A stretch of 60,112 nt of DNA, taken from Candidatus Yanofskybacteria bacterium (GTDB lineage Bacteria > Patescibacteriota > Minisyncoccia > 2-02-FULL-40-12 > IGHO2-12-FULL-4). The stretch covers positions 1 to 60,112 of the forward strand of contig JACOZX010000018.1 of assembly GCA_016181105.1 (NCBI GenBank), written 5' to 3'. The notes below the pieces were generated by a model. That model saw only the letters and a list, made by a program, of their open reading frames with translations, was not told the origin of the DNA and did no database searches. The number at the start of each line of letters is the position of its first letter. The first letter of the stretch is position 1. Of the stretch, positions 10,729 to 54,458 are shown piece by piece. The position numbers and the translations under genes were made by a program.

Positions 10729-11712
10729 CTAATCTGTAAATATCTCAACCCAAATTGTTCCCGGTGTAAATTTTAATTCACCACCTTCGGCATCGTAAAA
10801 ATAAAGCTTCTCTTTGGCCGTAGTTTTTTTCCAGAAGCCTTTGATTTCTTGCCCGTTCTGGTAGAAGGTTGCTTCGCCGGAGCCGACGGTTTTTATTCGG
10901 ATGTAGTCTTTACTGACGGGAGACCATGTTGTTTTCATGAAAACAACATTTTCCGCCTCAACTTGTTTGGACGTGTTTTTGTCTGTTTCATCTTTCCCGC
11001 CGCGTTCCCGGCGGTATGTGTTATTGTCTGAGTCATATTCCCAAGACACCTGAAACTCGTCTTTATAAATTGCCGGCGGTTGTATATTGCCCAAACTCTT
11101 TGATTTTTTGTGCGGATATGAGCTAAGTGATTTGCTTAGTCCATACTCCAGACTGGCAACGGCTTTGTTTATAAGTTCCGGATTGGTGAAACCGTTGTGG
11201 GGGGGTTTTGCCTCCTTCTTTCTATAGTAAATTGTGCCGTCGTATTTCATGGCGTCTATGTTGTCAACCACTCCGCCGTTTAATTCTGCCAGCGCCTCTT
11301 TCTCTCCTCCCCAGTGGCTGTAAATCGCTCCCAAACCCTGAACCAAGGGTATAAAATCTAGGCGTGAGGATCTTATGGAGCCAATTTCTTTCGGCCAGTT
11401 GCATTGAAAAACAGCCATCATTCTGGTTACCCCGCCTTCTGTGACGGGCATTTCAAAAACGAAGTCAGCTTCACTAATTCCTGAAAGGGGTCTGGTTTCC
11501 GGATCAGAAGCTAACATGACTGCCAGCGGTCTGACTTTGGCTTTTTCGCATTTAACGCCGGAGAGATCTGACTCCGGGAAATTCATTCCTTCTATCACGG
11601 CCTCTCCTCTTTTGATCTCAATCTTATTGTTTCCGTAAAACAAAAACCAGCCGGCAATAAAGACAACGATTCCGGATCCAACCAAAAGTATTTTTGTTGT
11701 AGAAATTTTCAT
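10729..11712 (-). CDS. DUF3048 (YerB-like) membrane-anchored protein
   Basis: It has an N-terminal TM segment and the block RPLAVMLASDPETRPLSGISEADFVFEMPVTEGGVTRMMAVFQ. The ATG overlaps the polA stop (ATGA). Confidence 0.55.
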   Translation of the reverse strand: MKISTTKILLVGSGIVVFIAGWFLFYGNNKIEIKRGEAVIEGMNFPESDLSGVKCEKAKVRPLAVMLASDPETRPLSGISEADFVFEMPVTEGGVTRMMAVFQCNWPKEIGSIRSSRLDFIPLVQGLGAIYSHWGGEKEALAELNGGVVDNIDAMKYDGTIYYRKKEAKPPHNGFTNPELINKAVASLEYGLSKSLSSYPHKKSKSLGNIQPPAIYKDEFQVSWEYDSDNNTYRRERGGKDETDKNTSKQVEAENVVFMKTTWSPVSKDYIRIKTVGSGEATFYQNGQEIKGFWKKTTAKEKLYFYDAEGGELKFTPGTIWVEIFTD

Positions 11713-14393
11713 GACATTTCTGACCAATTTTTTCCGACTTTTATGTCAACCACTATGGGCACTTTGATCTGCCCCTTTTGTGCATCAGGAGACCATATAT
11801 TCTCCATGATTTCTTTGAATTTCAATGCGATTTTTGTTGTCTTTTCCTCTCTCACCTCGCATAATAGCTCATCGTGGACTTGCAGTAAAATTTTAGCTTC
11901 CTCTTCAAGTTTATTTCCGTGGATAAAATTGTAAACCTTAATCATCGCCAGTTTCATTATATCAGCCTCTGTTCCCTGAATCGGGGCGTTAATGGCCATT
12001 CTTTCGGCCTGGGCTACCATGTGAGGCATGCTGGAATTTATCTCCGGCAAATCCCTTCTTCTGCCGAAGTAAGTTTGGACATAGCCTTTTTCTTTGGCTT
12101 CAGTCTTGGCCTTTTCCATATAGTCTGCCATACCGGAAAACTTGTTTAGATATTTTGTAATAAACTCTCTGGCGCGCATTTTGTCCACACCGGCGGAACG
12201 GGCGAAACCAAGGACACCCATACCAAATAAAATGCCAAAATTCAGGGCCTTGGCTTGCCGGCGCATTTGGGTGGTAACTTTGTCTGGACTGACCTCAAAG
12301 ACTTCGGCGGCCGTACGGGTATGAATATCTTCGTTGTTTTGGAAGGCCTCAAGCATCTTCCGGTCACCCGACAGATAGGCGGCGATTCTTAGCTCAATTT
12401 GTGAATAATCAAGCGATAAAAGTTGCCAGCCCTCTTCAGCCACAAATGCTTTCCTAAACTCTTGTCCGAGTTCGGTGCGAATGGGGATGTTCTGTAAATT
12501 GGGGTCCTGACTGGAAAGTCTGCCCGTAACCGTACCCATTTGATTGTAAGTGGTGTGTACGCGATGGTCTTTCCGGTTAATTAAGGCCGGAAACGGTTCG
12601 ATGTAGGTCGTTTTTAATTTCTGAAGCTCTCGGTACTGCATTATAAGTTCAATTATTGGATGTTCGTCAACCAGTTTTTCAAGTTCGGAGACTGCCGTGG
12701 AACGGGCTCCCCCGCTGGTTTTCTTGACCTTGGTTTTTAGTTGCAGTTTATCAAATAGCACCTCTCCGAGTTGCTGGGGCGAGTTGATGTTAAATTCTTG
12801 TCCGGCCTGCTCGTCCGGCCCGCCTGCCGGACGAGCAGGCAGGCGAGCCTGCTCATAAATTTTCTTTTCCAAGCCGGTAATTTCAGAATTTACTTTTTCC
12901 GACAATTTTTCTAAACCGACTGTATCAATTTTGATGCCGTTTTTTTCCATTTCTGCTAAGACAGGAATCAGGGGCATCTCAATTTCTTCAAAAACTTTAA
13001 CCAGATTTTTTTCTTTCAGTTTTTTCAAGAGGATTTCCACCAGTTTGGGCAAAGCCAAGCTTTCGTTTGTCGCGGATTGACCAAATTCTAGAAAATACAA
13101 CTTGTCTAGGTCATAATTTTTAAGTTCCGGTTTGATTAGATAAGCAGCCACGGCTGTGTCAAAGTCAAGATTCTTAATATGGACTCCTTGGTTTAAAAGA
13201 AGTTTGACTATAGGTTTAAGGTTATGTCCTCTTTTGGCTACGGCGTTGTCTTCTAAGAGATTTTTTAGATCAGAAGTTGTCTTTTCTAATGCGGTTAGGT
13301 TGCCGTTTAGATAGAGTGTTTTGGGGTCGGGGTTTTGAATAACTAAAGATTGCGGTTCGTTTAGGTCTAATCTTTTTTGTTCTTTTTCTTGATTTTCTAT
13401 TGGTTCTGTTTTTGCGGCGGCCGTATCCGGCAGACGGGCTAGTAAGCTGTTAAAGCCGAGGTTTCTCAAAAGTTGTATAGTTTTTTCTTTGTTGTATTTG
13501 TTTCGCCAGTCTACTTTTTCAAGAGAAAAATCTATGTCTAGGTTGATAATGATTGTCGCCAACCTTTTACTAAAAATTGCCTGTTTTTCATTTTCTTTCA
13601 ATTTTTCTGCGAGTTTGGCGGTCAAGATCTCGCCCCCCTCACCATTTCTATAAGATGGATTAATGGTGAGGGGTTTCGTCTCGGACTTCTCGGTCCGAGA
13701 CTTCACTTTTTTAAAATCTTTATCTTTTATTTTTTTTAGTTCTTTATACAAGTTTTCTATTGTGCCGTATTTCTGCAATAAGGTCATGGCTGTCTTTTCA
13801 CCGATACCGGGAACTCCGGGAATGTTGTCTGAAGGATCGCCTTTTAATCCCTTAAAATCCACAACTTGGCAAGGCTCTAGGCCGTATCTTTCTTTGACAC
13901 CTTTTTCGTTGTAAGTAACCATGTCGGTTACGCCTTTACGCAAAGTGAAAACGACCACCTTATCCCCTTCCACTAACTGCAGAGTGTCTAAGTCGCCTGT
14001 CAGAATTACTGTCTGCAAATCTTTTACTTTCTTGGCTTGTTCGGTAACCGAACCGATTAAATCATCAGCTTCAAATCCCTCTTGTTCAAAAATTTCAACA
14101 CCAAAGGCTTGCAAGACCTCTTTGATAAGTGGTATTTGAGCATAAAGTTCGTCGGGCGCTTTTTTGCGGTGGGCTTTGTATTCTTCAAACTCTTCGTGGC
14201 GAAAAGTTGGTCCGGCCAAGTCAAAAGCGGCGGCCATATAATCGGGCCGCATGTCTTTGATAGTCTTAAGCAGAACCGAGGTAAAGCCATATACTGCGTT
14301 GACGATCATGCCTTGAGGCGAGGTCAAAGGCGGCAAAGCATGAAAGGCGCGGTGAACCAAAGCGTTGGCATCAATTAGAATTAATTTTTTCAT
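11709..14393 (-). CDS. polA: DNA polymerase I
   Basis: 894 aa with a 5' nuclease N-domain (LILIDANALVHRAFHAL), FNINSPQQL, DYSQIELRIAA and QVHDEL. Confidence 0.95.
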   Translation of the reverse strand: MKKLILIDANALVHRAFHALPPLTSPQGMIVNAVYGFTSVLLKTIKDMRPDYMAAAFDLAGPTFRHEEFEEYKAHRKKAPDELYAQIPLIKEVLQAFGVEIFEQEGFEADDLIGSVTEQAKKVKDLQTVILTGDLDTLQLVEGDKVVVFTLRKGVTDMVTYNEKGVKERYGLEPCQVVDFKGLKGDPSDNIPGVPGIGEKTAMTLLQKYGTIENLYKELKKIKDKDFKKVKSRTEKSETKPLTINPSYRNGEGGEILTAKLAEKLKENEKQAIFSKRLATIIINLDIDFSLEKVDWRNKYNKEKTIQLLRNLGFNSLLARLPDTAAAKTEPIENQEKEQKRLDLNEPQSLVIQNPDPKTLYLNGNLTALEKTTSDLKNLLEDNAVAKRGHNLKPIVKLLLNQGVHIKNLDFDTAVAAYLIKPELKNYDLDKLYFLEFGQSATNESLALPKLVEILLKKLKEKNLVKVFEEIEMPLIPVLAEMEKNGIKIDTVGLEKLSEKVNSEITGLEKKIYEQARLPARPAGGPDEQAGQEFNINSPQQLGEVLFDKLQLKTKVKKTSGGARSTAVSELEKLVDEHPIIELIMQYRELQKLKTTYIEPFPALINRKDHRVHTTYNQMGTVTGRLSSQDPNLQNIPIRTELGQEFRKAFVAEEGWQLLSLDYSQIELRIAAYLSGDRKMLEAFQNNEDIHTRTAAEVFEVSPDKVTTQMRRQAKALNFGILFGMGVLGFARSAGVDKMRAREFITKYLNKFSGMADYMEKAKTEAKEKGYVQTYFGRRRDLPEINSSMPHMVAQAERMAINAPIQGTEADIMKLAMIKVYNFIHGNKLEEEAKILLQVHDELLCEVREEKTTKIALKFKEIMENIWSPDAQKGQIKVPIVVDIKVGKNWSEMS
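12805..12854. repeat. D-type GC-rich palindromic mini-element inserted in frame in polA
   Basis: A 13-bp stem CCTGCTCGTCCGG/CCGGACGAGCAGG is flanked by an 8-bp direct repeat GAGCAGGC (minus-strand reading). It adds 42 nt, encoding RLPARPAGGPDEQA. Confidence 0.8.
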
Positions 14394-14407: not shown

Positions 14408-14481
14408 GAACCTCCGCAAGTGCCTCTTTTTTGCGTCGGACTGTCGCCGCCGAACTGCAAAAGAGGCACTTGCTTTGGTTC
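14408..14481 (-). repeat. B-type hairpin element (copy 3, reverse orientation)
   Basis: The stem GAACC..GCAAGTGCCTCTTTT / AAAAGAGGCACTTGC..GGTTC encloses the conserved loop, the reverse complement of GCAGTTCGGCGGCGACAGTCCGACGC. Confidence 0.8.
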
Positions 14482-14507
14482 TAAATAAAATCTTTTTTCG
14501 CGGAGGT

Positions 14508-14954: not shown

Positions 14955-14963
14955 ACCCTCGAA

Positions 14964-15011
14964 TCCAAGGAGGCTCCTTGGACGGTTTTAAGCTCCTTGG
15001 ACGGTTTTAAG
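14964..15011 (+). repeat. REP-like palindrome TCCAAGGAGGCTCCTTGGA plus a 20-bp tandem duplication at the 3' end of the transposase gene
   Basis: The palindrome spans 14964-14982. CTCCTTGGACGGTTTTAAG is repeated at 14974-14992 and 14993-15011. The second unit encodes the C-terminus LKTVQGA. Confidence 0.8.
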
Positions 15012-15650
15012 CCTTAACCAATCTTTGTGAAAGTCAGAAAAGTCCTTCCTGTTCTTAAAATAATCTGGAAACTTTTCCAGACTTAAAATCGCTTTTTCAA
15101 CTCTTTGCTTGCCCAGATAATCTAAGGAACTTGAGTATTTGTAATTTTCAGCAAATGCTAGTGTTTTTTTGGTATCAATGATCCCGTTTTCTTTCCAACT
15201 TGGCTCAAGAACCTTCACTGGGTTAAGGTGAATGTACGCTAGTAAATATTTTAAATATCTGTCGTTGTCGACATGCTCTGCTTTAAAAGGCTTTTGAAAC
15301 AGTGAGCCAACGCGTTCATATTTTTTATTAAAATACATTGCGTAACTAGTTGTGAGTTTCTTCATAAAATTTGTAAGTCCGCCTTCTTTTATTTCTTTAA
15401 CTAAAATATGAAAATGATTAGGCATCAAAACATAAGCCCCAACAGCAATCAGTCTCTCCCCCAAACCTACCTTATCCAAGGAGGCTCCTTGGGAGGTTTT
15501 AAAAACAACAGCTTTTGTTCCGTTTGCTAACCGTAGCGTCTTAGAAAACCTTTCGTAGTCCCTTGTCTCCTGAAATATTTTTCTCTTTTCAACACCACGG
15601 TTGTAGACATGGTAATATTCACCTACTGCGAATTTAATTTTGCGCTCCAT
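14988..15650 (-). CDS. IS200-like Y1 (HUH) transposase, REP-associated (RAYT-like)
   Basis: 220 aa with YHVYNRG, MPNHFHILV (HUH) and YIHLNPVK (catalytic Tyr region). It is flanked by copies of the same palindrome. Confidence 0.8.
   Translation of the reverse strand: MERKIKFAVGEYYHVYNRGVEKRKIFQETRDYERFSKTLRLANGTKAVVFKTSQGASLDKVGLGERLIAVGAYVLMPNHFHILVKEIKEGGLTNFMKKLTTSYAMYFNKKYERVGSLFQKPFKAEHVDNDRYLKYLLAYIHLNPVKVLEPSWKENGIIDTKKTLAFAENYKYSSSLDYLGKQRVEKAILSLEKFPDYFKNRKDFSDFHKDWLRLKTVQGA
15475..15492 (+). repeat. REP-like palindrome copy inside the transposase CDS
   Basis: TCCAAGGAGGCTCCTTGG, translated as part of KTSQGASLDKV. Confidence 0.75.
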
Positions 15651-15679
15651 AATATAAGTATAACAGATAGTTTCTAAAA

Positions 15680-15717
15680 TCCAAGGAGGCTCCTTGGATA
15701 CGGCTCTTTGGATACGG
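15680..15717 (+). repeat. REP-like palindrome copy upstream of the transposase start, with a short tandem repeat
   Basis: TCCAAGGAGGCTCCTTGGA is followed by TACGGCTCTTTGGATACGG. Confidence 0.8.
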
Positions 15718-21506: not shown

Positions 21507-21516
21507 AAGTAGTTTT

Positions 21517-21699
21517 AAGTTTGGATGATTATTACTTTTTCCGGACGTTCGTTTTCCCCAGCGAGGAAAACTTCACTCGTTGCAGTCTGTGGATTCCCGA
21601 CCAGAGTCGGGACATAGCCATCGATGGCTATGCAACCTGCCTGTCGGCAGACAGGTCCACAGCCTGCAGCGCCTACAAAAGCAATAATCATCCAAACTT
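21517..21699 (+). ncRNA. A-type structured element, copy 1 (unclassified ncRNA or structured MITE)
   Basis: A 23-bp closing helix with one mismatch. The conserved core is TTTTTCCGGACG..CCAGCG loop..GCAGTCTGTGG/CCACAGCCTGC, with three internal hairpins. Confidence 0.7.
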
Positions 21700-21705
21700 A
21701 TTCCA

Positions 21706-21979: not shown

Positions 21980-22993
21980 TTGTTTTTGGCTATTTTTCTT
22001 TCCAGCCAGTTAATTTTTACCAAAGGTTCTTTGTCTTACGGACAAGATGAAACCTACTCAATTAAAGACTATATTGAAGAAGTAGCTATTCCTGCAAGAA
22101 TCTTAACCAAAATACAGTCAGCGGAAGCCAATAGTTTGGCTTCTTTTGTTGGCTTGGAATCTCACGGTTTTTTGCCAAATCCGGTCAATACGCTCCAACA
22201 AACGTCTCTTATGGCCTTTAATTCCTTGGAAAACAACCTATCTGAATTCAAAAGCAACGGAAAAGGGGACCAGATTTCAATCTATACCGTACAAGAGGGA
22301 GATACCCTCTCTTTTATTGCCTCTGACTTTGGTGTTAGTACAAATACAATAATCTGGGCCAATAGTTTAAAAGACATTGACAGTATCAGGCCGGGAGACG
22401 AACTTAAGATTCCACCCATAAACGGGGTCGTACACAAGGTGAAAAAAGGGGATACTATTTCCTCTGTTGCCCAAAAATATGCGGCAGAACAAGAGAAAAT
22501 CATTGAGTTTAATGCTTTACCGAAAGACGGCTCTTTGCAGATTGATGATGAGCTGATTATCCCCGATGGCAAGAAGGCTTCCACTGGAGTTGCCTCGGGT
22601 AGTCAGTCTTCTGCCAGGAGATTTGCTTATTTGCCGGATTTAACTGACTTTTTTATGCTTCCGGCCATTGGCAGAAACTGGGGGATAATTCATGGCAGGA
22701 ATGGGGTTGATATAGCTAACAGTTGCGGAACGCCAATTTACGCGGCGGCTGGTGGTGTTGCGGCTATATCAGACGCGGTTGGTTGGAATGGCGGGTTTGG
22801 TAAATTTATAAAACTTGTCCATTCAAACGGCACAGAAACAATTTATGCTCATGCCAGCAAACTCCTTGTAAATCAAGGGCAAACAGTATCTAAAGGCGAA
22901 CAAGTGGCTATTATGGGTACAACCGGACGCTCAACGGGTTGTCATTTGCATTTTGAGGTTCATGGCGCCAAAAATCCTCTGGCTAAGTACTAA
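21980..22993 (+). CDS. LysM-domain M23 family peptidoglycan endopeptidase
   Basis: Two LysM repeats (GDTLSFIASDFGVSTNTI, GDTISSVAQKYAAEQEKI) and an M23 core (GVDIA..HSNGTETIYAHAS..GTTGRSTGCHLHFEV). The start (TTG) is uncertain. Confidence 0.85.
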   Translation: MFLAIFLSSQLIFTKGSLSYGQDETYSIKDYIEEVAIPARILTKIQSAEANSLASFVGLESHGFLPNPVNTLQQTSLMAFNSLENNLSEFKSNGKGDQISIYTVQEGDTLSFIASDFGVSTNTIIWANSLKDIDSIRPGDELKIPPINGVVHKVKKGDTISSVAQKYAAEQEKIIEFNALPKDGSLQIDDELIIPDGKKASTGVASGSQSSARRFAYLPDLTDFFMLPAIGRNWGIIHGRNGVDIANSCGTPIYAAAGGVAAISDAVGWNGGFGKFIKLVHSNGTETIYAHASKLLVNQGQTVSKGEQVAIMGTTGRSTGCHLHFEVHGAKNPLAKY

Positions 22994-23013
22994 ATGTTTC
23001 GCACGAAACATTT
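22992..23013. repeat. C-type palindrome AAATGTTTCGCACGAAACATTT (possible bidirectional terminator)
   Basis: A perfect 22-bp palindrome overlapping the stop of the M23 gene. Confidence 0.85.
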
Positions 23014-23060
23014 TGAAAGTAACAAAAAAACCGTCCTCGTGGATGGTTTTACATTATAAA

Positions 23061-23927: not shown

Positions 23928-25326
23928 TTATTTAATGTGATTGGCGGTTATGGTGTCGTTGTTTTCTAAATCAGCGATTGTCCGGCTTATTTTCAACATA
24001 CGATGGTAGCCTCGGCCTGAAATGCCATGTTTTTCAACAAATCTGCCGAGTATCAGTTCGGCCTCCGGTTTTAAATTACAAATTTTGTGTATATTCCTAA
24101 AACCTACTTCGGAGTTGGTGAGTAAATTATATTTTTTTAGTCTTTCCGCTTGAATTTCTCTTGCTTTTTCAACCTTTTTCCTTAATTCCAAAGAAGATTC
24201 TGAAGACCGGGTGTCTTTGAGGTTGGCAAATGTTTCGCGCGAAACATAAACCTGGATATCTATCCGGTCTAAAAGAGGACCGGAGATCTTTTTTTTGTAT
24301 CTTATGACATTTGCTTGCGGGCAATAACAAGTTTCCGTTTCACTGCCGAAGTTTCCGCAGGGACAAGGATTCATGGAAGCCACAAGCATAAATCTGGCCG
24401 GAAAATGACCGGAACCGGAGGCTCTGGCAACTGTCACCGAGCCTTCTTCCATGGGTTGTCTTAAAGATTCTAAGACATTTCTTGGGAATTCCGGCAGTTC
24501 GTCCAGAAAAAGCACTCCTCTGTGAGCCAAACTAATCTCGCCGGGGCGGGGGATAGAACCGCCGCCGATAATTCCCGGAGCTGAATAAAATAGTTGCTAA
24601 AGCTTTGGCCAGTATAGTCTTTCCTGAACCGGGCGGACCAAACATTAAAATATTGTGGCCACCGGCGGCGGCCACTAAAAGCGCTCTTTTGGCTCCTTCT
24701 TGGCCTTTAATATTGGCAAAGTCGTAGTCGCTTTCCTGTTTGTCAGAGCTAATCTGATGAAAAGAAGTTTGTTTTTCAGGCTCAATTTCAATCTCACTTT
24801 TTAAGTAAGAAACCAGTTCTTTTAAGTTGTTAACCCCAACAACTCTAATGTCGTTTACCAAGGCTGCCTCCTTAGCGTTCAATTTGGGTACCAGGATCTC
24901 ATAAAAGCCCATTTTACTGGCTAAAACTGCCATAGACAAGATACCGTTAATCGGTCGCAAGGAACCGTCTAAAGAAAGCTCGCCGGCAAAAAGGCGAGCT
25001 TTCTTTGGGTCTATTTTTACTTGCAAAGTTGCTGCCAGGTAGCCTACGGCAATCGGCAAGTCAAAAGACGAACCCTCCTTTTTTATGCTAGCCGGGGCCA
25101 GATTGACTATAATCCTTAAGTTTTTTGACTTTGGATTGGCAAAACCGCTGTTTCTAATGGCCGAATCCAACCTGTCTTTAGATTCCTCAACACTTTTGTC
25201 GGGCAAACCGACAATGTTGAAAAAATGCAGTCCCGGGAAGGAGTCAACCTCAACATCAATTTTTACCGCATCCAAACCGTTTAAAGCGGCGGAAGAAACC
25301 ATTACAGACATATTTACTCCCCCCAT
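23928..25326 (-). pseudogene. comM: Mg-chelatase-like competence protein ComM/YifB, internally deleted and frameshifted
   Basis: The N-terminal ORF ends ..GPPGSGKTILAKALATILFSS. The C-terminal ORF resumes in another frame at GIIGGGSIPRPGEISLAHRGVLFLDE. About 45 residues normally found between these blocks are absent. Confidence 0.75.
24230..24247. repeat. C-type palindrome ATGTTTCGCGCGAAACAT inside the comM coding sequence
   Basis: A perfect 18-bp palindrome, translated as YVSRETF. Confidence 0.85.
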
Positions 25327-25335
25327 AGTTAGTTT

Positions 25336-25361
25336 AAAAATGTTTCGCGCGAAACATTTTT
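25336..25361. repeat. C-type palindrome AAAAATGTTTCGCGCGAAACATTTTT (possible bidirectional terminator)
   Basis: A perfect 26-bp palindrome between the dksA-like stop and the comM start. Confidence 0.85.
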
Positions 25362-26146: not shown

Positions 26147-27505
26147 CTAGAATCCAAGTAGAGTGTCAACAATGGAGTACACTTGTTCACGAGAGCTGGC
26201 AATTACGAGGTAGGTATTGTTATTTGCTGAAGAAACTAGGGCGTAATCAATAGACCTGTCAGGATAGGGGAAGTTCATAAATCTTATGTCCACGTCCCGG
26301 TATTTGTTGTTCTCAAAGATATCTTGTTCGGATGCTTCTGTAATCTGAAAAAGCTCGGCTAAGTCATCTGATAATGTTTGTTCCCACTCTGACATGGCTA
26401 TTCTGGCGACAACGGCGTCAGTAATCTCAACAATCAGAGCAGTCCTTGTTTCGGGTTCGGCATCTGTGATGGGTTTACCCAGATCGTCAAATTTTTCCTG
26501 TTGGCGGGAAATTACCAGGCCAAACCTTTTATCAGTAACATTGTCAAGCAGGCTTTGGTTTTGATTAACGAGGAATCTGCTGACAAAACTTGAGAAAGTT
26601 ACGGGTTCTCCGGTTTCGTTTTCCGGAGTTAAAAACAAATTCTTTGAGCTTTCTCCCAAAACAACTTGAGATAGGACCAAGTTAAGAGGTTCCATGTCGT
26701 CCAGAGAAGCCAAATCAGGCACGACAACCGAATCACTGGAGGCAAAGATTAGTTTTAACGGTTTAAGGAAATCGGGCGTAGATGTTGGAGTCGGCGAAGA
26801 GGTGACTACCGGAGTAATGTCTTCTCTTAAGAAATAAAACCAATATCCGCCACCAGCCACAACCACCAAGACAACGATGGCAATGAGTGTCCATCGGTTA
26901 AAAACAGCGGTCTTTTTGGGCGGCACGGCAATTGCCGACGTCGGTACGGGTTTATCCTTGACTTGTTGAGGACTAAGTGGTCTGATATTAGGCAAAACAG
27001 AACGTTTTTCTGCTCCGGCTATGCTTATGCTTGCCGAGGGTGGTAATGGCTTTGGCGGCAACCTGTCAGATGGTTGGCCGGTAGACGGTAGGGGCGGGGA
27101 ACTGGGAATGGTTACTTCCACGCCTTTCGCCGGTGCTCCCTGACCGATAGATTTAATATCGCTTTCCATGGTTCTAATGGAAGATTTGGCGCTGATATTG
27201 CTGGTTGCCGCCGGGTTTGGTTGAACCGGTCGCGGAGGGACAAGAGGCGGGGCGGTTGGAGAACTCTTAATTGGAGGAATTGTGGTTGAAGGTGATGGCG
27301 CAGCAATTAGTGGAGGCTTGGGTATGGTTGGCGCGGGCACGACAACAGGAGCTGTCGGTTTTGGCGGTTGCGATACAGGCCCGCCTGTTGGGCGGACAGG
27401 CCCGCCTGCCGGACGGGCAGGCAAAGAAGCCGGAGACGGCAATTGAGGAGTTGATTCAGAATCTTTTGCTATTGGTAAATTTGAAGGAGGGGGATTTGTT
27501 GCCAT
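26147..27505 (-). CDS. proline-rich membrane-anchored hypothetical protein
   Basis: 452 aa with ~200 aa of Pro-rich low complexity, one TM segment (WTLIAIVVLVVVAGGGYWFYFL) and a globular C-terminal part. Confidence 0.6.
   Translation of the reverse strand: MATNPPPSNLPIAKDSESTPQLPSPASLPARPAGGPVRPTGGPVSQPPKPTAPVVVPAPTIPKPPLIAAPSPSTTIPPIKSSPTAPPLVPPRPVQPNPAATSNISAKSSIRTMESDIKSIGQGAPAKGVEVTIPSSPPLPSTGQPSDRLPPKPLPPSASISIAGAEKRSVLPNIRPLSPQQVKDKPVPTSAIAVPPKKTAVFNRWTLIAIVVLVVVAGGGYWFYFLREDITPVVTSSPTPTSTPDFLKPLKLIFASSDSVVVPDLASLDDMEPLNLVLSQVVLGESSKNLFLTPENETGEPVTFSSFVSRFLVNQNQSLLDNVTDKRFGLVISRQQEKFDDLGKPITDAEPETRTALIVEITDAVVARIAMSEWEQTLSDDLAELFQITEASEQDIFENNKYRDVDIRFMNFPYPDRSIDYALVSSANNNTYLVIASSREQVYSIVDTLLGF
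27375..27422. repeat. D-type GC-rich element, two tandem 21-nt units, in frame in the CDS
   Basis: ACAGGCCCGCCTG is repeated at 27375 and 27396. The element encodes PARPAGGPVRPTGGP and shares GGCCCGCCTGCCGGACGRGCAGGC with the polA insert. Confidence 0.8.
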
Positions 27506-33669: not shown

Positions 33670-33871
33670 GAGCTTGGGCGAATAATGCTTTTGTAGGCTC
33701 TGTAAGCTGTGGATTGCTCGCGAGCCGCTTTTTCAGCCCATTCAGCAGAATAAGATGAAAAAGTGGCGAGCTGGTCGGAAAGTATTCTTTCCGAATCCAT
33801 AGCTTACAAAGAGCGAGCTTTTTCGCTGGAAAAAAGCGAGCGTCCGGAAAAAGCATTATTCGCCCAAGCTC
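33670..33871 (-). ncRNA. A-type structured element, copy 3
   Basis: The closing helix is GAGCTTGGGCGAATAATGCTTTT/AAAAGCATTATTCGCCCAAGCTC. It has the same core as copies 1 and 2, with compensated stems. Confidence 0.7.
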
Positions 33872-34763
33872 AACTCTTCAACTCTTCTATCCCATCAGCC
33901 AATCTTACCGTCGGCTTCCAGCCAAGAAGTTTCTTGGCCAAACTAATATCAGCCAAAGTTAATCTAGCTTCTCCTTTTCTTGGCGCAATAACTTTTGTTT
34001 TACTCCCAATCATTTTTGCTACTTCAACAACCGAATGATTTTCCCCACTGCCGATATTTATGACTTCTCCTTTGCCGACTTTGCTTGACTTCATAGCCGC
34101 AAGATTGGCGGCGACCACATCTCGGACATGAGTAAAATCTCTCCTCTGTTTGCCGTTAGGAACTATGGTCAGCGGCTGGCCGGCTTTGTTTTGCTTTAGA
34201 AAAATTCCGATTACAGTAGCATAAGCGTCTTCGCAAGTTTGCCTCGGACCATAGACATTAAAATATCTCAAACAAACAACCGGCAATCCATAGAGATGAT
34301 TGAAAAGTTGGCAGTACATCTCGCCCATGTATTTTTGCATGGCATAAGGATTGAGGGGATTGGCAATCATATCTTCCCGTAAGGGCATGGTTTTTTGCAG
34401 GCCGTAAGCCGAAGAAGAAGCAGAGTATATAAATTTTTTAACGCCGGCTTCTTTGGCGGCAAGCAAAACATGCAAGGTGCCGGTTAAGTTTGCATCGTGA
34501 GAAGTTTTTGGATCTTTGATTGAAGGCTGGATTCTGGGCTGGGCGGCTAGGTGAAAAACAACTTCGGCTTTTTTGAAGATGGGCCTGATTTTGTCCAGAT
34601 CAACAATGCTTAAATTGTGAAATTTGGCCTTGGGGTTGAGGTTTTCTTTTTTTCCAGTTGAGAGGTTGTCTATGACATGAATGTCCTTGTGGCCTTGCTT
34701 GACCAACTCATCAACCAAATTTGAGCCGATAAACCCGGCTCCGCCGGTAACAATGATTTTCAT
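33870..34763 (-). CDS. NAD-dependent sugar-nucleotide epimerase/dehydratase (SDR family)
   Basis: MKIIVTGGAGFIGSNLV and the catalytic-type YAMQKY. Confidence 0.85.
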   Translation of the reverse strand: MKIIVTGGAGFIGSNLVDELVKQGHKDIHVIDNLSTGKKENLNPKAKFHNLSIVDLDKIRPIFKKAEVVFHLAAQPRIQPSIKDPKTSHDANLTGTLHVLLAAKEAGVKKFIYSASSSAYGLQKTMPLREDMIANPLNPYAMQKYMGEMYCQLFNHLYGLPVVCLRYFNVYGPRQTCEDAYATVIGIFLKQNKAGQPLTIVPNGKQRRDFTHVRDVVAANLAAMKSSKVGKGEVINIGSGENHSVVEVAKMIGSKTKVIAPRKGEARLTLADISLAKKLLGWKPTVRLADGIEELKS

Positions 34764-34787: not shown

Positions 34788-34849
34788 GCGAGTATGCCTG
34801 TTTCTTGCGCCGGACTGTCGCCGTCGAACTGCGAAACAGGCATACTCGC
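34788..34849 (-). repeat. B-type hairpin element (copy 4, reverse orientation)
   Basis: The stem GCGAGTATGCCTGTTTC/GAAACAGGCATACTCGC surrounds the loop, the reverse complement of GCAGTTCGACGGCGACAGTCCGGCGC. Confidence 0.8.
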
Positions 34850-34874: not shown

Positions 34875-34947
34875 TATCCCCAGGAGGGCTTGAACCTCCA
34901 ACCTTCAGCTCCGCAAGCTGACGCTCTTCCAATTGAGCTATGGGGAC
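34875..34947 (-). tRNA. tRNA-Arg (anticodon GCG)
   Basis: Hand-folded cloverleaf: GTCCCCA TA GCTC AATTGGAA GAGC G TCAGC TTGCGGA GCTGA AGGTT GGAGG TTCAAGC CCTCC TGGGGAT A. Confidence 0.8.
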
Positions 34948-39964: not shown

Positions 39965-40231
39965 CTACTTATATATTTCGTCTCTTTTAGCTATTTTAAG
40001 TATGGATATTTCCTTTCTGTTTTTGATGATGTCAAAAATCACCCTATATTCTCCTATTCTAAAACGAAAACTTCCCAATTCATTATTTACCAATTTCTTT
40101 GCAAACTTCAAAGGATTGTTCAAAGTAAAAAAGCGCACCTTGCCGGCTATGCGCCTTTGAATAACTGATGAAAAACGCTGCAAATCGTTTAATGCCTGCT
40201 TGGTATAAATTGTCTTCCACTCAAATGCCAA
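39965..40231 (-). CDS. RelE/ParE-family toxin
   Basis: C-terminal LGSFRFRIGEYRVIFDI..ISILKIAKRDEIYK. A TTG start overlaps the antitoxin stop. Confidence 0.65.
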   Translation of the reverse strand: MAFEWKTIYTKQALNDLQRFSSVIQRRIAGKVRFFTLNNPLKFAKKLVNNELGSFRFRIGEYRVIFDIIKNRKEISILKIAKRDEIYK

Positions 40232-40424
40232 GGTTGTGAAGGACTTTTTCTTGAGGAACAGCCTCTCCTCTTTTTGTTTGTTCTCTAGCGAAAGCAATGT
40301 CTTTTGCGTGTTTGGCGTACTTTTCAAGCATGGCAAACTTTTCATCAAGCTTTTTAAGGCGTTTTTTTATTTCATCTTTCTCTCTTGAGACTGTTTTGAT
40401 TTGATTGGACAAAACTTGATTCAT
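40221..40424 (-). CDS. antitoxin partner (small, coiled-coil)
   Basis: A 67-aa ORF immediately upstream of, and overlapping, the toxin. Confidence 0.5.
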   Translation of the reverse strand: MNQVLSNQIKTVSREKDEIKKRLKKLDEKFAMLEKYAKHAKDIAFAREQTKRGEAVPQEKVLHNLGI

Positions 40425-40464
40425 GGTCCAATGTTAACAACTTCTTGAGCAAAAAACAATAGGG

Positions 40465-41217
40465 CTAGCCTTTGGCAACGACTAAACCGATTACTTTTTC
40501 TGCGCCCGCCTCTTTCAATATTCTGGCGCACTCGTCTAGGGTTGCTCCGGTGGTGGTTATGTCGTCAACCAGAAGTATAGTTTTGTTTTTTATCTTTTCC
40601 GGCTGACGGCAAATAAATATCCCCTCTGTGTTTTTTATCCTTTCTTCTTTGTTTTCTATCTCCGCTTGAGGCTTTTTACTCTTTATCCTGTCCAATACGT
40701 CAACGGCAATTTCTAATTTAAATTCCCCGGCTAACTCATCAGCTAAAAGTTCTGACTGATTGTAAGAGCGCCAGTTAAGCCTTAACCGGTGCAAGGGCAG
40801 GGGAACGAGGACAATCTCGCTTCGGTAACTGTCAAAAAAGCGGTCTTTGTTTTTTTGTTTTAAAAACCTTATCAGGAGTCTGCCAAGAGGCGCTTTTGTT
40901 GAGGATATGAACTTGTATTTTAAAGCCCAAAGCATTTTTTTGACTAGAGGTTCTTCGTAACTGGCGGCTATCCAGATAAAATCTAAAAAGTGGTCCTTCC
41001 TGCAAAACGGACAAGTTTCGCCTTGGCTTGTGGGCGAGGCGCAGAAGGCGCACTCAAAACCTTTTCTAATATTGATTCTTTGAAAACATGGCTGGCACGA
41101 GTATTTATCCGGATCGTCTGCGTTTTGGATTTTGTTACAACCCAGACAATGAATAGGGAAGAATAGATCAAAGAAAAAGTCTTTTAAGCTTGCTATGGAT
41201 AACTTGAGTAACTTCAT
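40465..41217 (-). CDS. comFC: ComF family phosphoribosyltransferase-like competence protein
   Basis: N-terminal Cys clusters (CLGC..C..C, CAFC..CPFC) and a PRTase loop LLVDDITTTGATL. Confidence 0.8.
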   Translation of the reverse strand: MKLLKLSIASLKDFFFDLFFPIHCLGCNKIQNADDPDKYSCQPCFQRINIRKGFECAFCASPTSQGETCPFCRKDHFLDFIWIAASYEEPLVKKMLWALKYKFISSTKAPLGRLLIRFLKQKNKDRFFDSYRSEIVLVPLPLHRLRLNWRSYNQSELLADELAGEFKLEIAVDVLDRIKSKKPQAEIENKEERIKNTEGIFICRQPEKIKNKTILLVDDITTTGATLDECARILKEAGAEKVIGLVVAKG

Positions 41218-43855: not shown

Positions 43856-45631
43856 ATGATCAAAATTCCCCAGGTTCTTATTCAGGAGTTAGTAAAGAGA
43901 AATCTTGTTCCGGAGGAAAAAGTTGAGGAGTATACAAAACAGGCCCAGGACGAAAATAAAGATTTCGGAAGAATCTTGGTTGAACAAGGGCTTGTAAGCG
44001 AAGAAGATATTCTCAAGATTAAAGAAGAGGTTTACCGTCTGCCTGTTTTTGATTTGATTAAATCAAAGACGGAAATTAACTTAGAGCTTTCCAATCTTAT
44101 CTCGGAAGATATCATAAATTTCTATCACATAATTCCTTTTGCCAAAACGGACTCTGTTTTGAGAGTCGGCATTCTTAATCCGGAAGACATCAACGCCCTG
44201 GAAGCTTTAAAGTTTATAGGCGAAGACAAGGGTCTGGAGCTGGAAAGGTTTTTGATTAGTTATAAAGATTTTGACCGTCTTTTGCAGAGCTACTCATCTA
44301 TTACCAGCGAGGTTGGCGAGGCTTTGGAAGTTAAATCTGCCGGGGATGATGCTTCTAAACTCAAACTGGAAATTCCCAAAACCGGCTCTTTGGATCAGAT
44401 TACGGCTGACTCCCCGGTAACCAGAGTCGTTGCCATAATGGTTAAGCATGCGGTTGAGAATAAGGCTTCCGACATACACATTGAACCTCTTGAAAATACG
44501 ATTCGCGTTCGTTTCAGGATTGACGGTGTTTTGCAGTCAACACTTTCTTTGCCCAAGAACTTGCTTTCGGCAATTGTGACTAGGATTAAGATTTTATCCG
44601 AGATGAAAATTGATGAAACTCGCCTGCCGCAGGACGGGCGTTTCAGCACTTATTTGGACAGAAAGATTGATTTTAGAGTCTCTTCTCTGCCGACTCGGCA
44701 CGGCGAAAAGATAGTTATGCGTATTCTGGATCCTTTGGTCGGCAACATAGATCTTCCCGACCTCGGTCTTTTTGGCCGTTCTCTGGACTTGGTTTTAAAA
44801 AATATAGAGAAACCTTTTGGCCAGATTTTGATCACCGGTCCAACCGGTTCCGGCAAGAGCACCACCCTATACTCTATTTTGAGAAAATATAATAATGAAG
44901 GTATAAATATCATCACTTTAGAGGACCCGATTGAGTATTTTTTGGAGGGTATAAACCAGTCGCAGGTTCACGAAGAAATAGGTTACACCTTTGCCAATGG
45001 CCTGCGCCACATTTTGCGCCAAGACCCGGACGTTATAATGGTCGGTGAGATAAGAGACAGGGAGACTGCCGGACTGGCCACAAATTCCGCTCTTACCGGC
45101 CACGTGGTTTTGTCCACTTTGCACACCAACGATTCGGTTGGCGTAATTCCGAGGCTGATAGATATGGGTGTTGAAAAATATCTTATCGCTCCCACCTTAA
45201 ATCTGGCCATTGCCCAGAGGCTTTTGAGAAAGTTGTGTAAAAAGTGTAAAATTAAAACTAAGCCCAATGCCGCTGAAAAAAAGATTCTTGACCAGGCGAT
45301 TAAAAACATGCCGACAGCTTACAGAAAAGATTTGCCTTCGGAGACAGAGTTTATTTACAAGCCTTCGGAAAAAGGTTGCGGTGAGTGCAACGGCAAGGCT
45401 TATAAAGGCAGAATCGCTATTTTTGAAGTTTTGGAGATGACTGACGAGTTGGAGCAGATAATTTTGGGGCAGATTTCAGAGGCAAAGATCAGGGCAGAAG
45501 CGGCTCGGCAAAACATGATCTCAATGTTTCAAGACGGTGTTATCAAAGTCTTGAAAGGCATAACTTCTCTGGAGGAGCTTCTGGAAACAGCTCAAGAGCA
45601 GGAAGTTGAGGAAGAAAAATTTAAAGTTTAA
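43856..45631 (+). CDS. pilB: type IV pilus extension ATPase PilB (GspE family)
   Basis: GPTGSGKSTTLYS, a GspE N-domain and a tetracysteine motif (CKKC..CGEC). Confidence 0.9.
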   Translation: MIKIPQVLIQELVKRNLVPEEKVEEYTKQAQDENKDFGRILVEQGLVSEEDILKIKEEVYRLPVFDLIKSKTEINLELSNLISEDIINFYHIIPFAKTDSVLRVGILNPEDINALEALKFIGEDKGLELERFLISYKDFDRLLQSYSSITSEVGEALEVKSAGDDASKLKLEIPKTGSLDQITADSPVTRVVAIMVKHAVENKASDIHIEPLENTIRVRFRIDGVLQSTLSLPKNLLSAIVTRIKILSEMKIDETRLPQDGRFSTYLDRKIDFRVSSLPTRHGEKIVMRILDPLVGNIDLPDLGLFGRSLDLVLKNIEKPFGQILITGPTGSGKSTTLYSILRKYNNEGINIITLEDPIEYFLEGINQSQVHEEIGYTFANGLRHILRQDPDVIMVGEIRDRETAGLATNSALTGHVVLSTLHTNDSVGVIPRLIDMGVEKYLIAPTLNLAIAQRLLRKLCKKCKIKTKPNAAEKKILDQAIKNMPTAYRKDLPSETEFIYKPSEKGCGECNGKAYKGRIAIFEVLEMTDELEQIILGQISEAKIRAEAARQNMISMFQDGVIKVLKGITSLEELLETAQEQEVEEEKFKV

Positions 45632-49533: not shown

Positions 49534-49599
49534 GAGGCCGGAAAAGAGGCCGTAATTGATTACTGCTTTTAACAAAAACAACGAAAGAGATTTTAATTA

Positions 49600-49672
49600 G
49601 AACCGAAGCGAGCGCCTCTTTTGCAGTCGACGGCGACAGTCCGACGCAAAAAAGAGGCGCTCGCGAAGGTTC
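49600..49672 (+). repeat. B-type hairpin element (copy 1)
   Basis: GAACCGAAGCGAGCGCCTCTTTT-GCAGTCGACGGCGACAGTCCGACGC-AAAAAAGAGGCGCTCGCGAAGGTTC. Confidence 0.85.
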
Positions 49673-49680
49673 GCACTAGT

Positions 49681-50671: not shown

Positions 50672-50699
50672 ATGTCAACAAGGAAACCAATTTTAGTTA

Positions 50700-50838
50700 G
50701 AACCGAAGCGAGCGCCTCTTTTGCAGTTTCTCGTCGAAGGTTCCGATCGGCCGAATCCGAAGGATTCATAGCCGATAAATCGGAATCGATGTTGGCGGCG
50801 ACAGTCCGAAGCAAAAAAAGAGGCGCTCGCGAAGGTTC
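50700..50838 (+). repeat. B-type hairpin element (copy 2) with an ~85-nt extra insert in the loop
   Basis: The arms match copy 1. The loop additionally carries nested hairpins (GAATCC-gaa-GGATTC, CCGAT-aa-ATCGG). Confidence 0.85.
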
Positions 50839-51868: not shown

Positions 51869-52218
51869 TAATTACAATGAAAAAAAATAAAAATCAGGAC
51901 GGTCAGATATTGATTTTCGCTATGATTATTCTGGGTATCATGGTTTTGACAGCCATATCTTTACAGGCAATTCTTATCCCCAAGTTGAGACTGTCTGCTG
52001 AAGTGAAAAATTCAGTCGGCGCGGCTTTTGCGGCAGAAAGCGGTTTGGAGTGGTGTTTGTACAACAACCAAGTTTCACCATCACCCACGCCCTGGCCTCC
52101 ACCGGTTATGGCCAACGGCGCGACATTTCAGGTTACACCGGCCGACTGCAGTGGAACCAATTTGAAATCAACGGGGACATACAGGGGGGTAGTCAGATCT
52201 TTTGAAGTTAACTTTTAG
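51865..52218 (+). CDS. PilX-like small membrane-anchored pilus protein
   Basis: 117 aa with DGQILIFAMIILGIMVLTAISL. Confidence 0.5.
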   Translation: MIITMKKNKNQDGQILIFAMIILGIMVLTAISLQAILIPKLRLSAEVKNSVGAAFAAESGLEWCLYNNQVSPSPTPWPPPVMANGATFQVTPADCSGTNLKSTGTYRGVVRSFEVNF

Positions 52219-52221
52219 CTA

Positions 52222-54458
<2,237 letters not shown>

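Follow-up and report, generated by a model that had tools for sequence, protein, structure and literature searches.

The 60,112-nucleotide (nt) stretch analysed here, hereafter the window, is a contig of a Candidatus Yanofskybacteria metagenome-assembled genome (MAG) from the candidate phyla radiation (CPR, or Patescibacteria), and its polA gene carries a GC-rich palindromic insert related to a 21-nt sequence, U (CCCGCCTGCCGGACGGGCAGG), the spread and nature of which are the subject of this account. The host open reading frame (ORF) is 100% identical to a protein named DNA polymerase I by NCBI in a Candidatus Yanofskybacteria MAG, and holds the Pfam 5′-3′ exonuclease and DNA_pol_A domains. The features of the locus are as follows.

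11709–14393, minus strand: polA, encoding DNA polymerase I (894 aa), the intact host gene, identified by the 100% protein match and Pfam domains
12806–12847, minus strand: in-frame insert of 42 nt, 14 codons (RLPARPAGGPDEQA), two nested 21-nt units, 79% GC
12819–12839, plus strand: inner unit, CCCGCCTGCCGGACGAGCAGG, 20/21 identical to U and missing from the sister genome
12806–12818, minus strand: 3′ part of the outer unit, coding sense, CCGGACGAGCAGG, uninterrupted in the sister genome as CTCGCCTGCCGGACGAGCAAG
12840–12847, minus strand: 5′ part of the outer unit, coding sense, CTCGCCTG, split off by the inner unit at CCTG^CCGG
12805–12819, unstranded: left arm, GCCTGCTCGTCCGGC, of a perfect 15-bp inverted repeat
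12826–12840, unstranded: right arm, GCCGGACGAGCAGGC, of the same perfect 15-bp repeat, with a 6-nt spacer between the arms
12847–12854, minus strand: upstream copy of an 8-nt direct repeat, GAGCAGGC, codons E-Q-A, with the downstream copy at 12805–12812

On the coding strand the insert, RLPARPAGGPDEQA at PolA residues 517–530, reads TAT GAGCAGGC tcgcctgcctgctcgtccggcaggcgggccggac GAGCAGGC CGGA, or over a longer stretch TAT GAGCAGGC TCGCCTGCCTGCTCGTCCGGCAGGCGGGCCGGAC GAGCAGGC CGGA CAA GAA TTT AAC ATC AAC. A preliminary description of this DNA had given the sequence, position and reading frame of the insert correctly, including the addition of exactly 14 codons, and the compositional contrast to which it pointed is strong (79% GC, against 42% for the remainder of polA). 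Its hairpin is indeed perfect, although the inverted repeat is 15 bp long, with a 6-nt spacer, rather than 13 bp; folded as single-stranded DNA, the insert reaches −23 kcal/mol (z = −5.1), and none of 200 dinucleotide shuffles folded equally well. Two further claims did not survive. The insert is not one 42-nt element, the sister genome holding 21 nt uninterrupted, and the 8-nt repeat, which had been taken for a flanking duplication, is poor evidence of transposition: 7 of its 8 bases belong to the unit's own periodic sequence, matching the 3′ end of the unit plus the next tandem base (GGGCAGG+C). When the insert was compared with itself at a period of 21, only about 10/21 positions agreed, the units being inverted and nested.

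The history of the site could be read from 24 aligned PolA orthologues (57–87% identity), with which window PolA has 187 invariant columns in common. The segment is absent from 23/24 of them, which run IY-(K/E)LAG-xEFNINSPQQL with nothing in between, as expected if the residues had been inserted, and the sister genome holds half of it. Site DNA was compared for the three closest PolA proteins, giving the following alleles.

P0003 (78% identity): TAT GAA TTA GCC GGA, empty, as read in L120/L121
Sister genome, P0002 (83–87% identity): TAT GAGCAAGCT CGCCTGCCGGAC GAGCAAGCT GGA, +21 nt
Window: the sister sequence plus CCTGCTCGTCCGGCAGGCGGG inserted at CCTG^CCGG, +42 nt

The sister allele is the same in two independent assemblies (L118 from NCBI, L119 from Logan). 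The series of empty, +21 and +42 alleles indicates that the 42 nt comprise two 21-nt units, the younger lying inversely in the centre of the older. The unbroken unit of the sister genome matches U at 18/21 positions, and the inner unit agrees at 20/21 with canonical U and equally well with the outer unit's reverse complement. Nesting at CCTG^CCGG was seen independently in polA and at two other loci (L043 and L126). A first unit would thus have entered the codons of a loop between PolA thumb helices before this genome and its sister split, and a second, in inverse orientation, would later have landed in the first's centre in this lineage only, creating the perfect 15-bp hairpin. A scan of JGI metagenomes with the polA junction pattern matched only three unrelated genes and returned no further polA alleles.

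Alignment with Taq polymerase shows the insert as a clean gap of 14 residues (FR-LAGHPFNLNS). In an AlphaFold2 model of window PolA, built on a 25-sequence alignment (mean predicted local distance difference test score, pLDDT, of 77), residues 517–538 form a coil between helix 491–516 and helix 539–549, with pLDDT below 50 at residues 521–532. We take the site, from Pol I structures, to be the turn between two thumb-subdomain helices directly before the conserved FNxNSxxQL helix. The insert thus lengthens a predicted, low-confidence surface loop of the PolA thumb, and the surface-loop location that the preliminary description had proposed as a check is where the model puts it. Elsewhere in the protein, the inter-domain linker (13416–13445; residues 317–326, LLARLPDTAA) resembles the RLPDGQ frame of U; the linker of orthologue P0003 reads ARLPDGQA, with 18/21 nt identity to U (L120, 1886–1906), and orthologue P0011 has GPPVLPAGRQV near it. 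SLLxRL is native to all PolA orthologues, and the likeness may stem from a chance overlap with this motif or from an ancient unit since decayed.

In U a 4-nt tail precedes a 6-bp stem with a 5-nt loop, an alternative fold being an 8-bp stem with one mismatch and one wobble pair, and none of the six frames contains a stop codon. Its spread was measured in a collection holding one genome per species. The exact 24-mer GGCCCGCCTGCCGGACGRGCAGGC around U (scan 1) was found in at least 117 stretches from many phyla, with unrelated flanks and host GC of 0.35–0.70. Because a 24-mer pattern fixes its own ends, a second scan used only the central 19-mer and recovered at least 120 further stretches, with almost none in common with the first (0/105 scan-2 copies match the scan-1 24-mer). 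Among its listed matches from genomes below 55% GC, the base at −1 was C in 97% and the base at +1 was G in 98%, and the next positions beyond were unconserved on both sides; sharp ends in unconserved flanks mark U as a discrete 21-mer. Flanks were unique in 195 of 230 exact copies among the matches listed, the only clusters being within-genome families or orthologous sites, and no ‘master’ context common to different genomes was found among these 230. By a rough estimate, exact copies in the collection may number thousands. The module thus recurs in the window, as the preliminary description had proposed, and far beyond it.

The hosts include many CPR lineages, Bacteroidota (cultured isolates among them), Chloroflexota, Acidobacteriota, Planctomycetota, Omnitrophota, Margulisiibacteriota, Marinimicrobia, Nitrospirota, Elusimicrobia, Bacillota, Desulfobacterota and Proteobacteria, with host GC from 0.29 to 0.74 over the listed matches of both scans. 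Isolates carrying U are Gelidibacter pelagius, Flavivirga sp. 57AJ16, Flavobacterium soyangense, Mucilaginibacter sp. PPCGB 2223 and Aureibaculum sp.; a few matches at about 70% GC (actinomycetes, Variovorax) could be due to chance.

Within the window, recurrence had been claimed at 27375–27422 and inside two elements termed A1 and A2. The first stands, with an exact 21-mer at 27401–27421; the second does not, A1 and A2 (21636–21655 and 52384–52403) holding only a related hairpin, CCTGCCTGTCGGCAGACAGG. The features of the second site are as follows.

26147–27505, minus strand: ORF rich in Pro (452 aa), without a Pfam match, in which the second copy lies
27401–27421, plus strand: exact copy of U inside this ORF, read as PARPAGG on the minus strand
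27380–27400, plus strand: diverged tandem unit, 17/21 identical to U, read as PVRPTGG and adjoining the exact copy

The two units form a head-to-tail direct pair with 17/21 identity and share the reading frame of the PolA insert (LPARPAGGPVRPTGGP). The orthologue in the sister genome (L043) is arranged differently: an inverse canonical unit interrupts another unit at CCTG^CCGG, and an additional one lies upstream. This implies that arrays turn over between genomes whose PolA proteins are still 83–87% identical. A third candidate in the window, at 44619–44641 (CTCGCCTGCCGCAGGACGGGCGT, U-like plus 3 bases), was rejected: it is native coding sequence for RLPQDGR (...ETRLPQDGRF...) in a 592-aa ORF, resembling a motif conserved in secretion ATPases, so U-like strings can be ordinary coding sequence.

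U lies between genes and also inside long ORFs, in all six frames. Host genes identified by Pfam encode IleRS/ValRS-type synthetases, DnaE, RecC, HisRS, adenylosuccinate lyase (PurB), IMPDH and ComM/YifB, and others an M1 peptidase, a DegT aminotransferase and a multicopper oxidase, the last in the isolate Gelidibacter pelagius. In genomes below 50% GC, 46/89 of the scan-2 copies listed fell in ORFs of at least 200 aa, in the frames RLPDGQ (17), PARPAGG (15), PPAGRAG (10) and the other three (4 in total), two of these three rare frames encoding Cys; a skew of this kind would result from purifying selection acting on the peptide encoded, and selection would seem to filter the reading frames and positions of copies. 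All measurable inserts, that is, coding copies with a comparable empty site or homologue, were multiples of 21 nt (21, 42 or 63 nt; 7, 14 or 21 codons), in agreement with the check for multiples of three that the preliminary description had proposed for CDS copies. Copies in IMPDH and PurB are exactly 14-residue gaps relative to solved homologues, and both read LPARPAGGPAG(R/K)(Q/A)G.

At one ComM site (RF-KG-RILTNS) in Daviesbacteria and relatives, every state from 0 to 7, 14 and 21 residues was found.

Closest relatives: empty, RF-KG-RILTNS; AAA GGT AGA
L022: +21, AAA GGC [CCGCCTGCCGGACGGGCAGGC] AAA
L128: +21, a 20-nt perfect palindrome with one further base
L127: +42, nested
L126: +63, three palindromic units of 21 nt each, nested

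In other lineages, ComM 7-residue inserts are seemingly degenerate (for example LPDRQAG, LSDGKSS and LPQQKLN). Either the site is a hot spot for insertions, or it is long-lived and inserts have been lost from it precisely and repeatedly. Some lineages carry unrelated inserts of 8–10 residues there instead (site data from L022 and L123–L128).

Taken together, the polA insert is very probably a nested pair of copies of a very small palindromic repeat, GC-rich and non-autonomous, with a unit of exactly 21 nt. The best reading of U is as a mobile hairpin, apparently undescribed, resembling repetitive extragenic palindromic sequences (REPs) and Rickettsia palindromic elements (RPEs), with mobility inferred from its presence or absence at orthologous sites and its dispersal. 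The proposal in the preliminary description of a mobile palindromic element tolerated in frame in an essential gene is thereby supported by orthologues, recurrence, insert lengths and loop location. Copies landing in surface loops would be nearly neutral and would persist even in essential genes, because each unit is seven codons long, stop-free in six frames and encodes a peptide rich in Pro, Ala, Gly and Arg. The window polA is intact, and the insert in it is best regarded as a passenger of neutral effect rather than a frameshift, an intein or an assembly error.

A wider claim is more tentative, our doubts slightly outweighing our confidence: U may be an undescribed kind of selfish DNA and, to our knowledge, the smallest discrete mobile unit (21 nt), letter-perfect across most phyla, inserting without target duplication or any element-linked gene, stacking in its own centre by steps of 21 nt, and providing a general and continuing source of 7-, 14- and 21-residue loop insertions in bacterial proteins, including enzymes essential for replication and translation. 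Searches of 8 million full texts gave no match for U, its reverse complement, P20 (a palindrome described below) or any of the six encoded peptides, the one occurrence of ‘parpagg’ being a Greenlandic word, and topic literature on U-like elements yielded only general work on REP- and RPE-type repeats.

Several observations weigh against mobility as proposed here. No insertion event was directly observed, and the direction of change at orthologous sites, gain as opposed to loss, would follow from parsimony among the orthologues. U copies have no fixed-length target-site duplication, their longest flanking repeats being only slightly above shuffled controls, no conserved target motif beside them (flanks were unconserved in scan 2) and no strand bias relative to host ORFs (40 versus 50 in scan 1, 29 versus 17 in scan 2). 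An all-against-all comparison of ORFs found no neighbour protein family recurring in more than 6 of the 117 loci, and 80 loci around relatives of a Y1 transposase (1.14 Mb) contained only 2 U-like and 4 P20-like matches, none flanking the gene. The proposal also leaves the letter-for-letter identity of U across more than a dozen phyla unexplained. Finally, for the inner polA unit a local inverted duplication may fit as well as canonical U does, at 20/21 positions, as judged from the sequences.

The few long flanking direct repeats lie in heptamer tandem arrays. Stems of at least 6 bp flank 7.8% of U copies, against 1.7% of controls, so that location at a hairpin tip is enriched about fourfold; the cases include copies nested within another U, within P20 and within further small palindromes, and some intergenic copies lie at the tips of larger hairpins. 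As a general rule, insertion at hairpin tips was rejected, being a minority effect (<10% of copies). A phage vector was likewise rejected, the one exact match in 2.9 million viral contigs being identical to a bacterial MAG contig, and a BLAST search of PLSDB plasmids gave no match to U.

A candidate mobiliser lies 2.2 kb from the polA insert.

14988–15650, minus strand: IS200-like Y1 transposase ORF (Pfam PF01797, E = 7e-9)

This ORF is bracketed by copies of another palindrome, TCCAAGGAGSCTCCTTGGA (14963–15010, 15474–15502 and 15679–15707), in an arrangement like that of a REP-associated tyrosine transposase (RAYT) with its own REPs. Its relatives lie within 8 kb of U in 4/117 loci, never flanked by it. 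U being scarce near Y1 relatives and never flanking them, the gene was not assigned as mobiliser; it is flanked by different hairpins, and the 80 loci are nearly devoid of U. More than 430 relatives of the ORF are known, mostly from CPR genomes, and in the sister genome a ParE-like gene and small ORFs lie in its place between tsaE and the upstream genes.

We infer that copies arise by active insertion without target duplication. Two movers are possible, neither being probable on its own and the two about equally so: a trans-acting enzyme acting on single-stranded hairpins (HUH/RAYT-like or other), or template switching or gene conversion with another copy as the template; something else takes the remainder.

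The rival that fares best, although we consider it doubtful, is that template switching copies the whole family: a strand would jump by microhomology to another copy, copy one 21-nt period and return, with no dedicated enzyme. The ComM unit is bounded by GGC...GGC and the polA unit by GAGCAGGC...GAGCAGGC, both being the unit's own periodic sequence, and GCCGGAC, which matches the centre of U over 7 nt, is already present in the empty polA site; microhomology-seeded copy-choice is therefore as good an account of the 8-nt polA repeat as target duplication. Such copying would also suit the failure to find a transposase beside copies in the 117 loci and the 80 Y1 loci, and direct repeats of 3–4 nt are slightly commoner than in the shuffled control. 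However, one would expect microhomology jumps to vary in phase, whereas the ends are sharp at 21 nt in 97–98% of the unbiased sample; flanking repeats at most copies are not above chance, and the entry of the first copy into a new phylum is left unexplained.

Somewhat less likely again is that the polA hairpin arose in place, by template switching during replication or by inverted duplication, a quasi-palindrome being perfected. Template-switch mutations reportedly produce a perfect stem in one step from an inverted neighbouring copy, and the inner polA unit resembles this: it is the reverse complement of the outer unit at 20/21 positions, including a lineage-specific A:T pair that perfects the 15-bp stem, and the same pattern of an inverse copy in the centre is present in L043. 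Yet the inner unit is equally near to canonical U (20/21) and differs from the outer by a canonical base (GGG, not GAG), while the nested unit of L043 is canonical at 21/21 and matches the reverse complement of its host at only 20/21. Nor can a local origin explain the outer unit, which is absent from P0003 and other orthologues and matches U at hundreds of unrelated sites, or the family; template-switch mutations are single local events, and a discrete 21-mer with unique flanks in hundreds of genomes is left unaccounted for.

A selected function, either as a PARPAGG-type peptide linker or as a regulatory or terminator hairpin, appears highly improbable. The dominance of three reading frames among coding copies and the intergenic copies at larger-hairpin tips would suit it, and REPs affect mRNA stability and termination (PMC3733652). 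Conservation is nevertheless at the DNA level, the same 21 nt occurring in six frames and between genes; host proteins are unrelated, the closest orthologues are without the insert, and the ComM 7-residue inserts degenerate, so that a peptide function is largely refuted. Assembly or binning artefact, to which the majority of matches being in MAGs might point, can hardly be credited, given copies with both flanks in one conserved gene, the identical sister allele in the NCBI and Logan assemblies, the five named isolates and the range of host GC (0.29 to 0.74).

The preliminary description had likened the insert to RPEs, an analogy that holds for how U works, in that palindromes are inserted in frame into otherwise conserved ORFs, but not for membership. 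Like RPEs, U is a dispersed palindrome present in frame in genes that include those of replication and repair, tolerated in surface regions, and with no transposase of its own known. RPE-1 measures about 100–150 bp, and RPE families are not known beyond Rickettsia and its relatives; U is set apart by length and hosts, being 21 nt long, richer in GC than most of its hosts and the same across more than a dozen phyla.

REPs, together with bacterial interspersed mosaic elements (BIMEs) and REP doublets forming hairpins (REPINs), all moved by RAYT (IS200-like Y1) transposases, resemble U in being 20–40 nt long, with a short unpaired tag and a GC-rich stem-loop, and in their frequent head-to-head pairs or clusters and occasional intragenic copies, including in DNA polymerase I (PMC3733652); U likewise is an imperfect palindrome within this size range, its stem GC-rich and its loop short. 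Di Nocera et al. (2013) equate the short RPE-4 and RPE-6 with CGTC-type REPs, describe REPs lying within the gene for DNA polymerase I and further genes of replication and repair, with no dedicated transposase for the CGTC class, and give CGTC families a CCA tail and, where the stem begins, A/T pairs (PMC3733652). U differs from REPs in lacking a terminal GTAG or CGTC tag, beginning with CCCG and ending with CAGG; CGTC occurs only in its reverse-strand loop, and an A/T stem base and a CCA tail are both absent. Furthermore, REPs are mostly extragenic and specific to a family or species, whereas about half of U copies in low-GC genomes are in long ORFs and the sequence is the same in distant phyla, and in the REPIN system the RAYT is flanked by its own REPs; no RAYT linkage of U was found in the 117 loci and the 80 Y1 loci.

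U is not a MITE (miniature inverted-repeat transposable element), because it has no signature of terminal repeats with a fixed-length duplication. IS200/IS605-type elements, which also insert without duplication, have a conserved 4–5-nt target and strand bias, while U has no conserved target and an orientation balanced relative to host ORFs. A coding minisatellite would fit the head-to-tail units at 27380–27421; those in polA are inverted and nested, and single units with unique flanks dominate elsewhere. The GC clusters of yeast mitochondria are GC-rich palindromes of about 30–40 bp in an AT-rich genome, some in frame in var1, and are regarded as mobile; they are organellar and eukaryotic, are reported with short flanking duplications, and are not known to have any sequence relation to U. 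PARCEL (palindromic amphipathic repeat coding elements) is reportedly a palindromic coding repeat distributed horizontally in diverse microbes, within intragenic tandem-repeat proteins; it is described as tandem-repeat coding sequence and not a 21-nt hairpin in unrelated housekeeping genes.

The larger result is that the module is one hairpin of 21 nt, with the same letters in a large part of the bacterial domain, entering essential genes in seven-codon steps. If U is what we propose, a single 21-base hairpin would explain many of the short Pro/Ala/Gly/Arg-rich indels (PARPAGG, RLPDGQ, PPAGRAG) in proteins of uncultured bacteria, and these, when met by annotators and structure predictors, could be masked or dated. 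They would amount to a natural experiment on where essential enzymes tolerate 7–21 extra residues. The identity of U between phyla, with its unique flanks and no partner gene, would pose a sharp mechanistic question, namely what copies a 21-mer so faithfully in such different cells, which the cultured Bacteroidota carriers make testable.

In Bacteroidota and some others, U lies in the middle of AT-rich tandem arrays of 7–8-nt units (GAGTTAT, TTTTCAA, ATTGAAT, AAATCAA and others), as at scan-2 loci L213, L294, L313, L326 and L327 and in Lentimicrobiaceae (L003–L116), one MAG of which has at least 15 composite U/tandem-array copies. A second widespread small palindrome, GTCATCCTGAGCG...CGAAGGATC, is present at loci from distant phyla; the peptides it encodes gave no literature match. 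U is nested within it at L268 and L301, and at L067 it lies about 50 nt downstream of U. That this palindrome can host U at its centre suggests that environmental bacteria carry a broader population of small hairpin repeats, nested in one another.

Other repeats in the window include the following.

21636–21655, unstranded: related 20-nt palindrome CCTGCCTGTCGGCAGACAGG, with a second copy at 52384–52403

Two compensating changes separate this palindrome from P20 (CCTGCCTGCCGGCAGGCAGG), copies of which are likewise scattered over the fetched loci. The window also has three paralogous intergenic elements, about 185–270 nt long (21515–21700, 52202–52468 and, on the minus strand, 33670–33873), whose ends pair over 23–44 nt and whose internal hairpins differ by compensating changes, with a P20-like hairpin in two of the three; they have no Rfam match, and could be a MITE family or an undescribed structured RNA. 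Rfam at the gathering threshold gave three tRNAs and nothing else in the whole window, and an E-value run on 12650–13000 gave only microRNA-model noise below threshold. A further palindromic family (TGCCTCTTTTTTGCGTCGGACTGTCGCCGCCGAACTGCAAAAGAGGCA and relatives) is present in both orientations (14408–14497, 34795–34842, 49577–49678 and 50677–50838), with one copy adjoining a tRNA gene (34875–34947). The perfect 22-nt palindrome AAATGTTTCGCGCGAAACATTT occurs three times at a spacing of about 1.1–1.2 kb (22992–23014, 24228–24250 and 25338–25360), and may be a terminator or operator. Around 40000–41000 in the window, cumulative GC skew reaches its minimum and gene orientation seems to turn from mostly minus to mostly plus, which suggests that the contig holds a replication origin.

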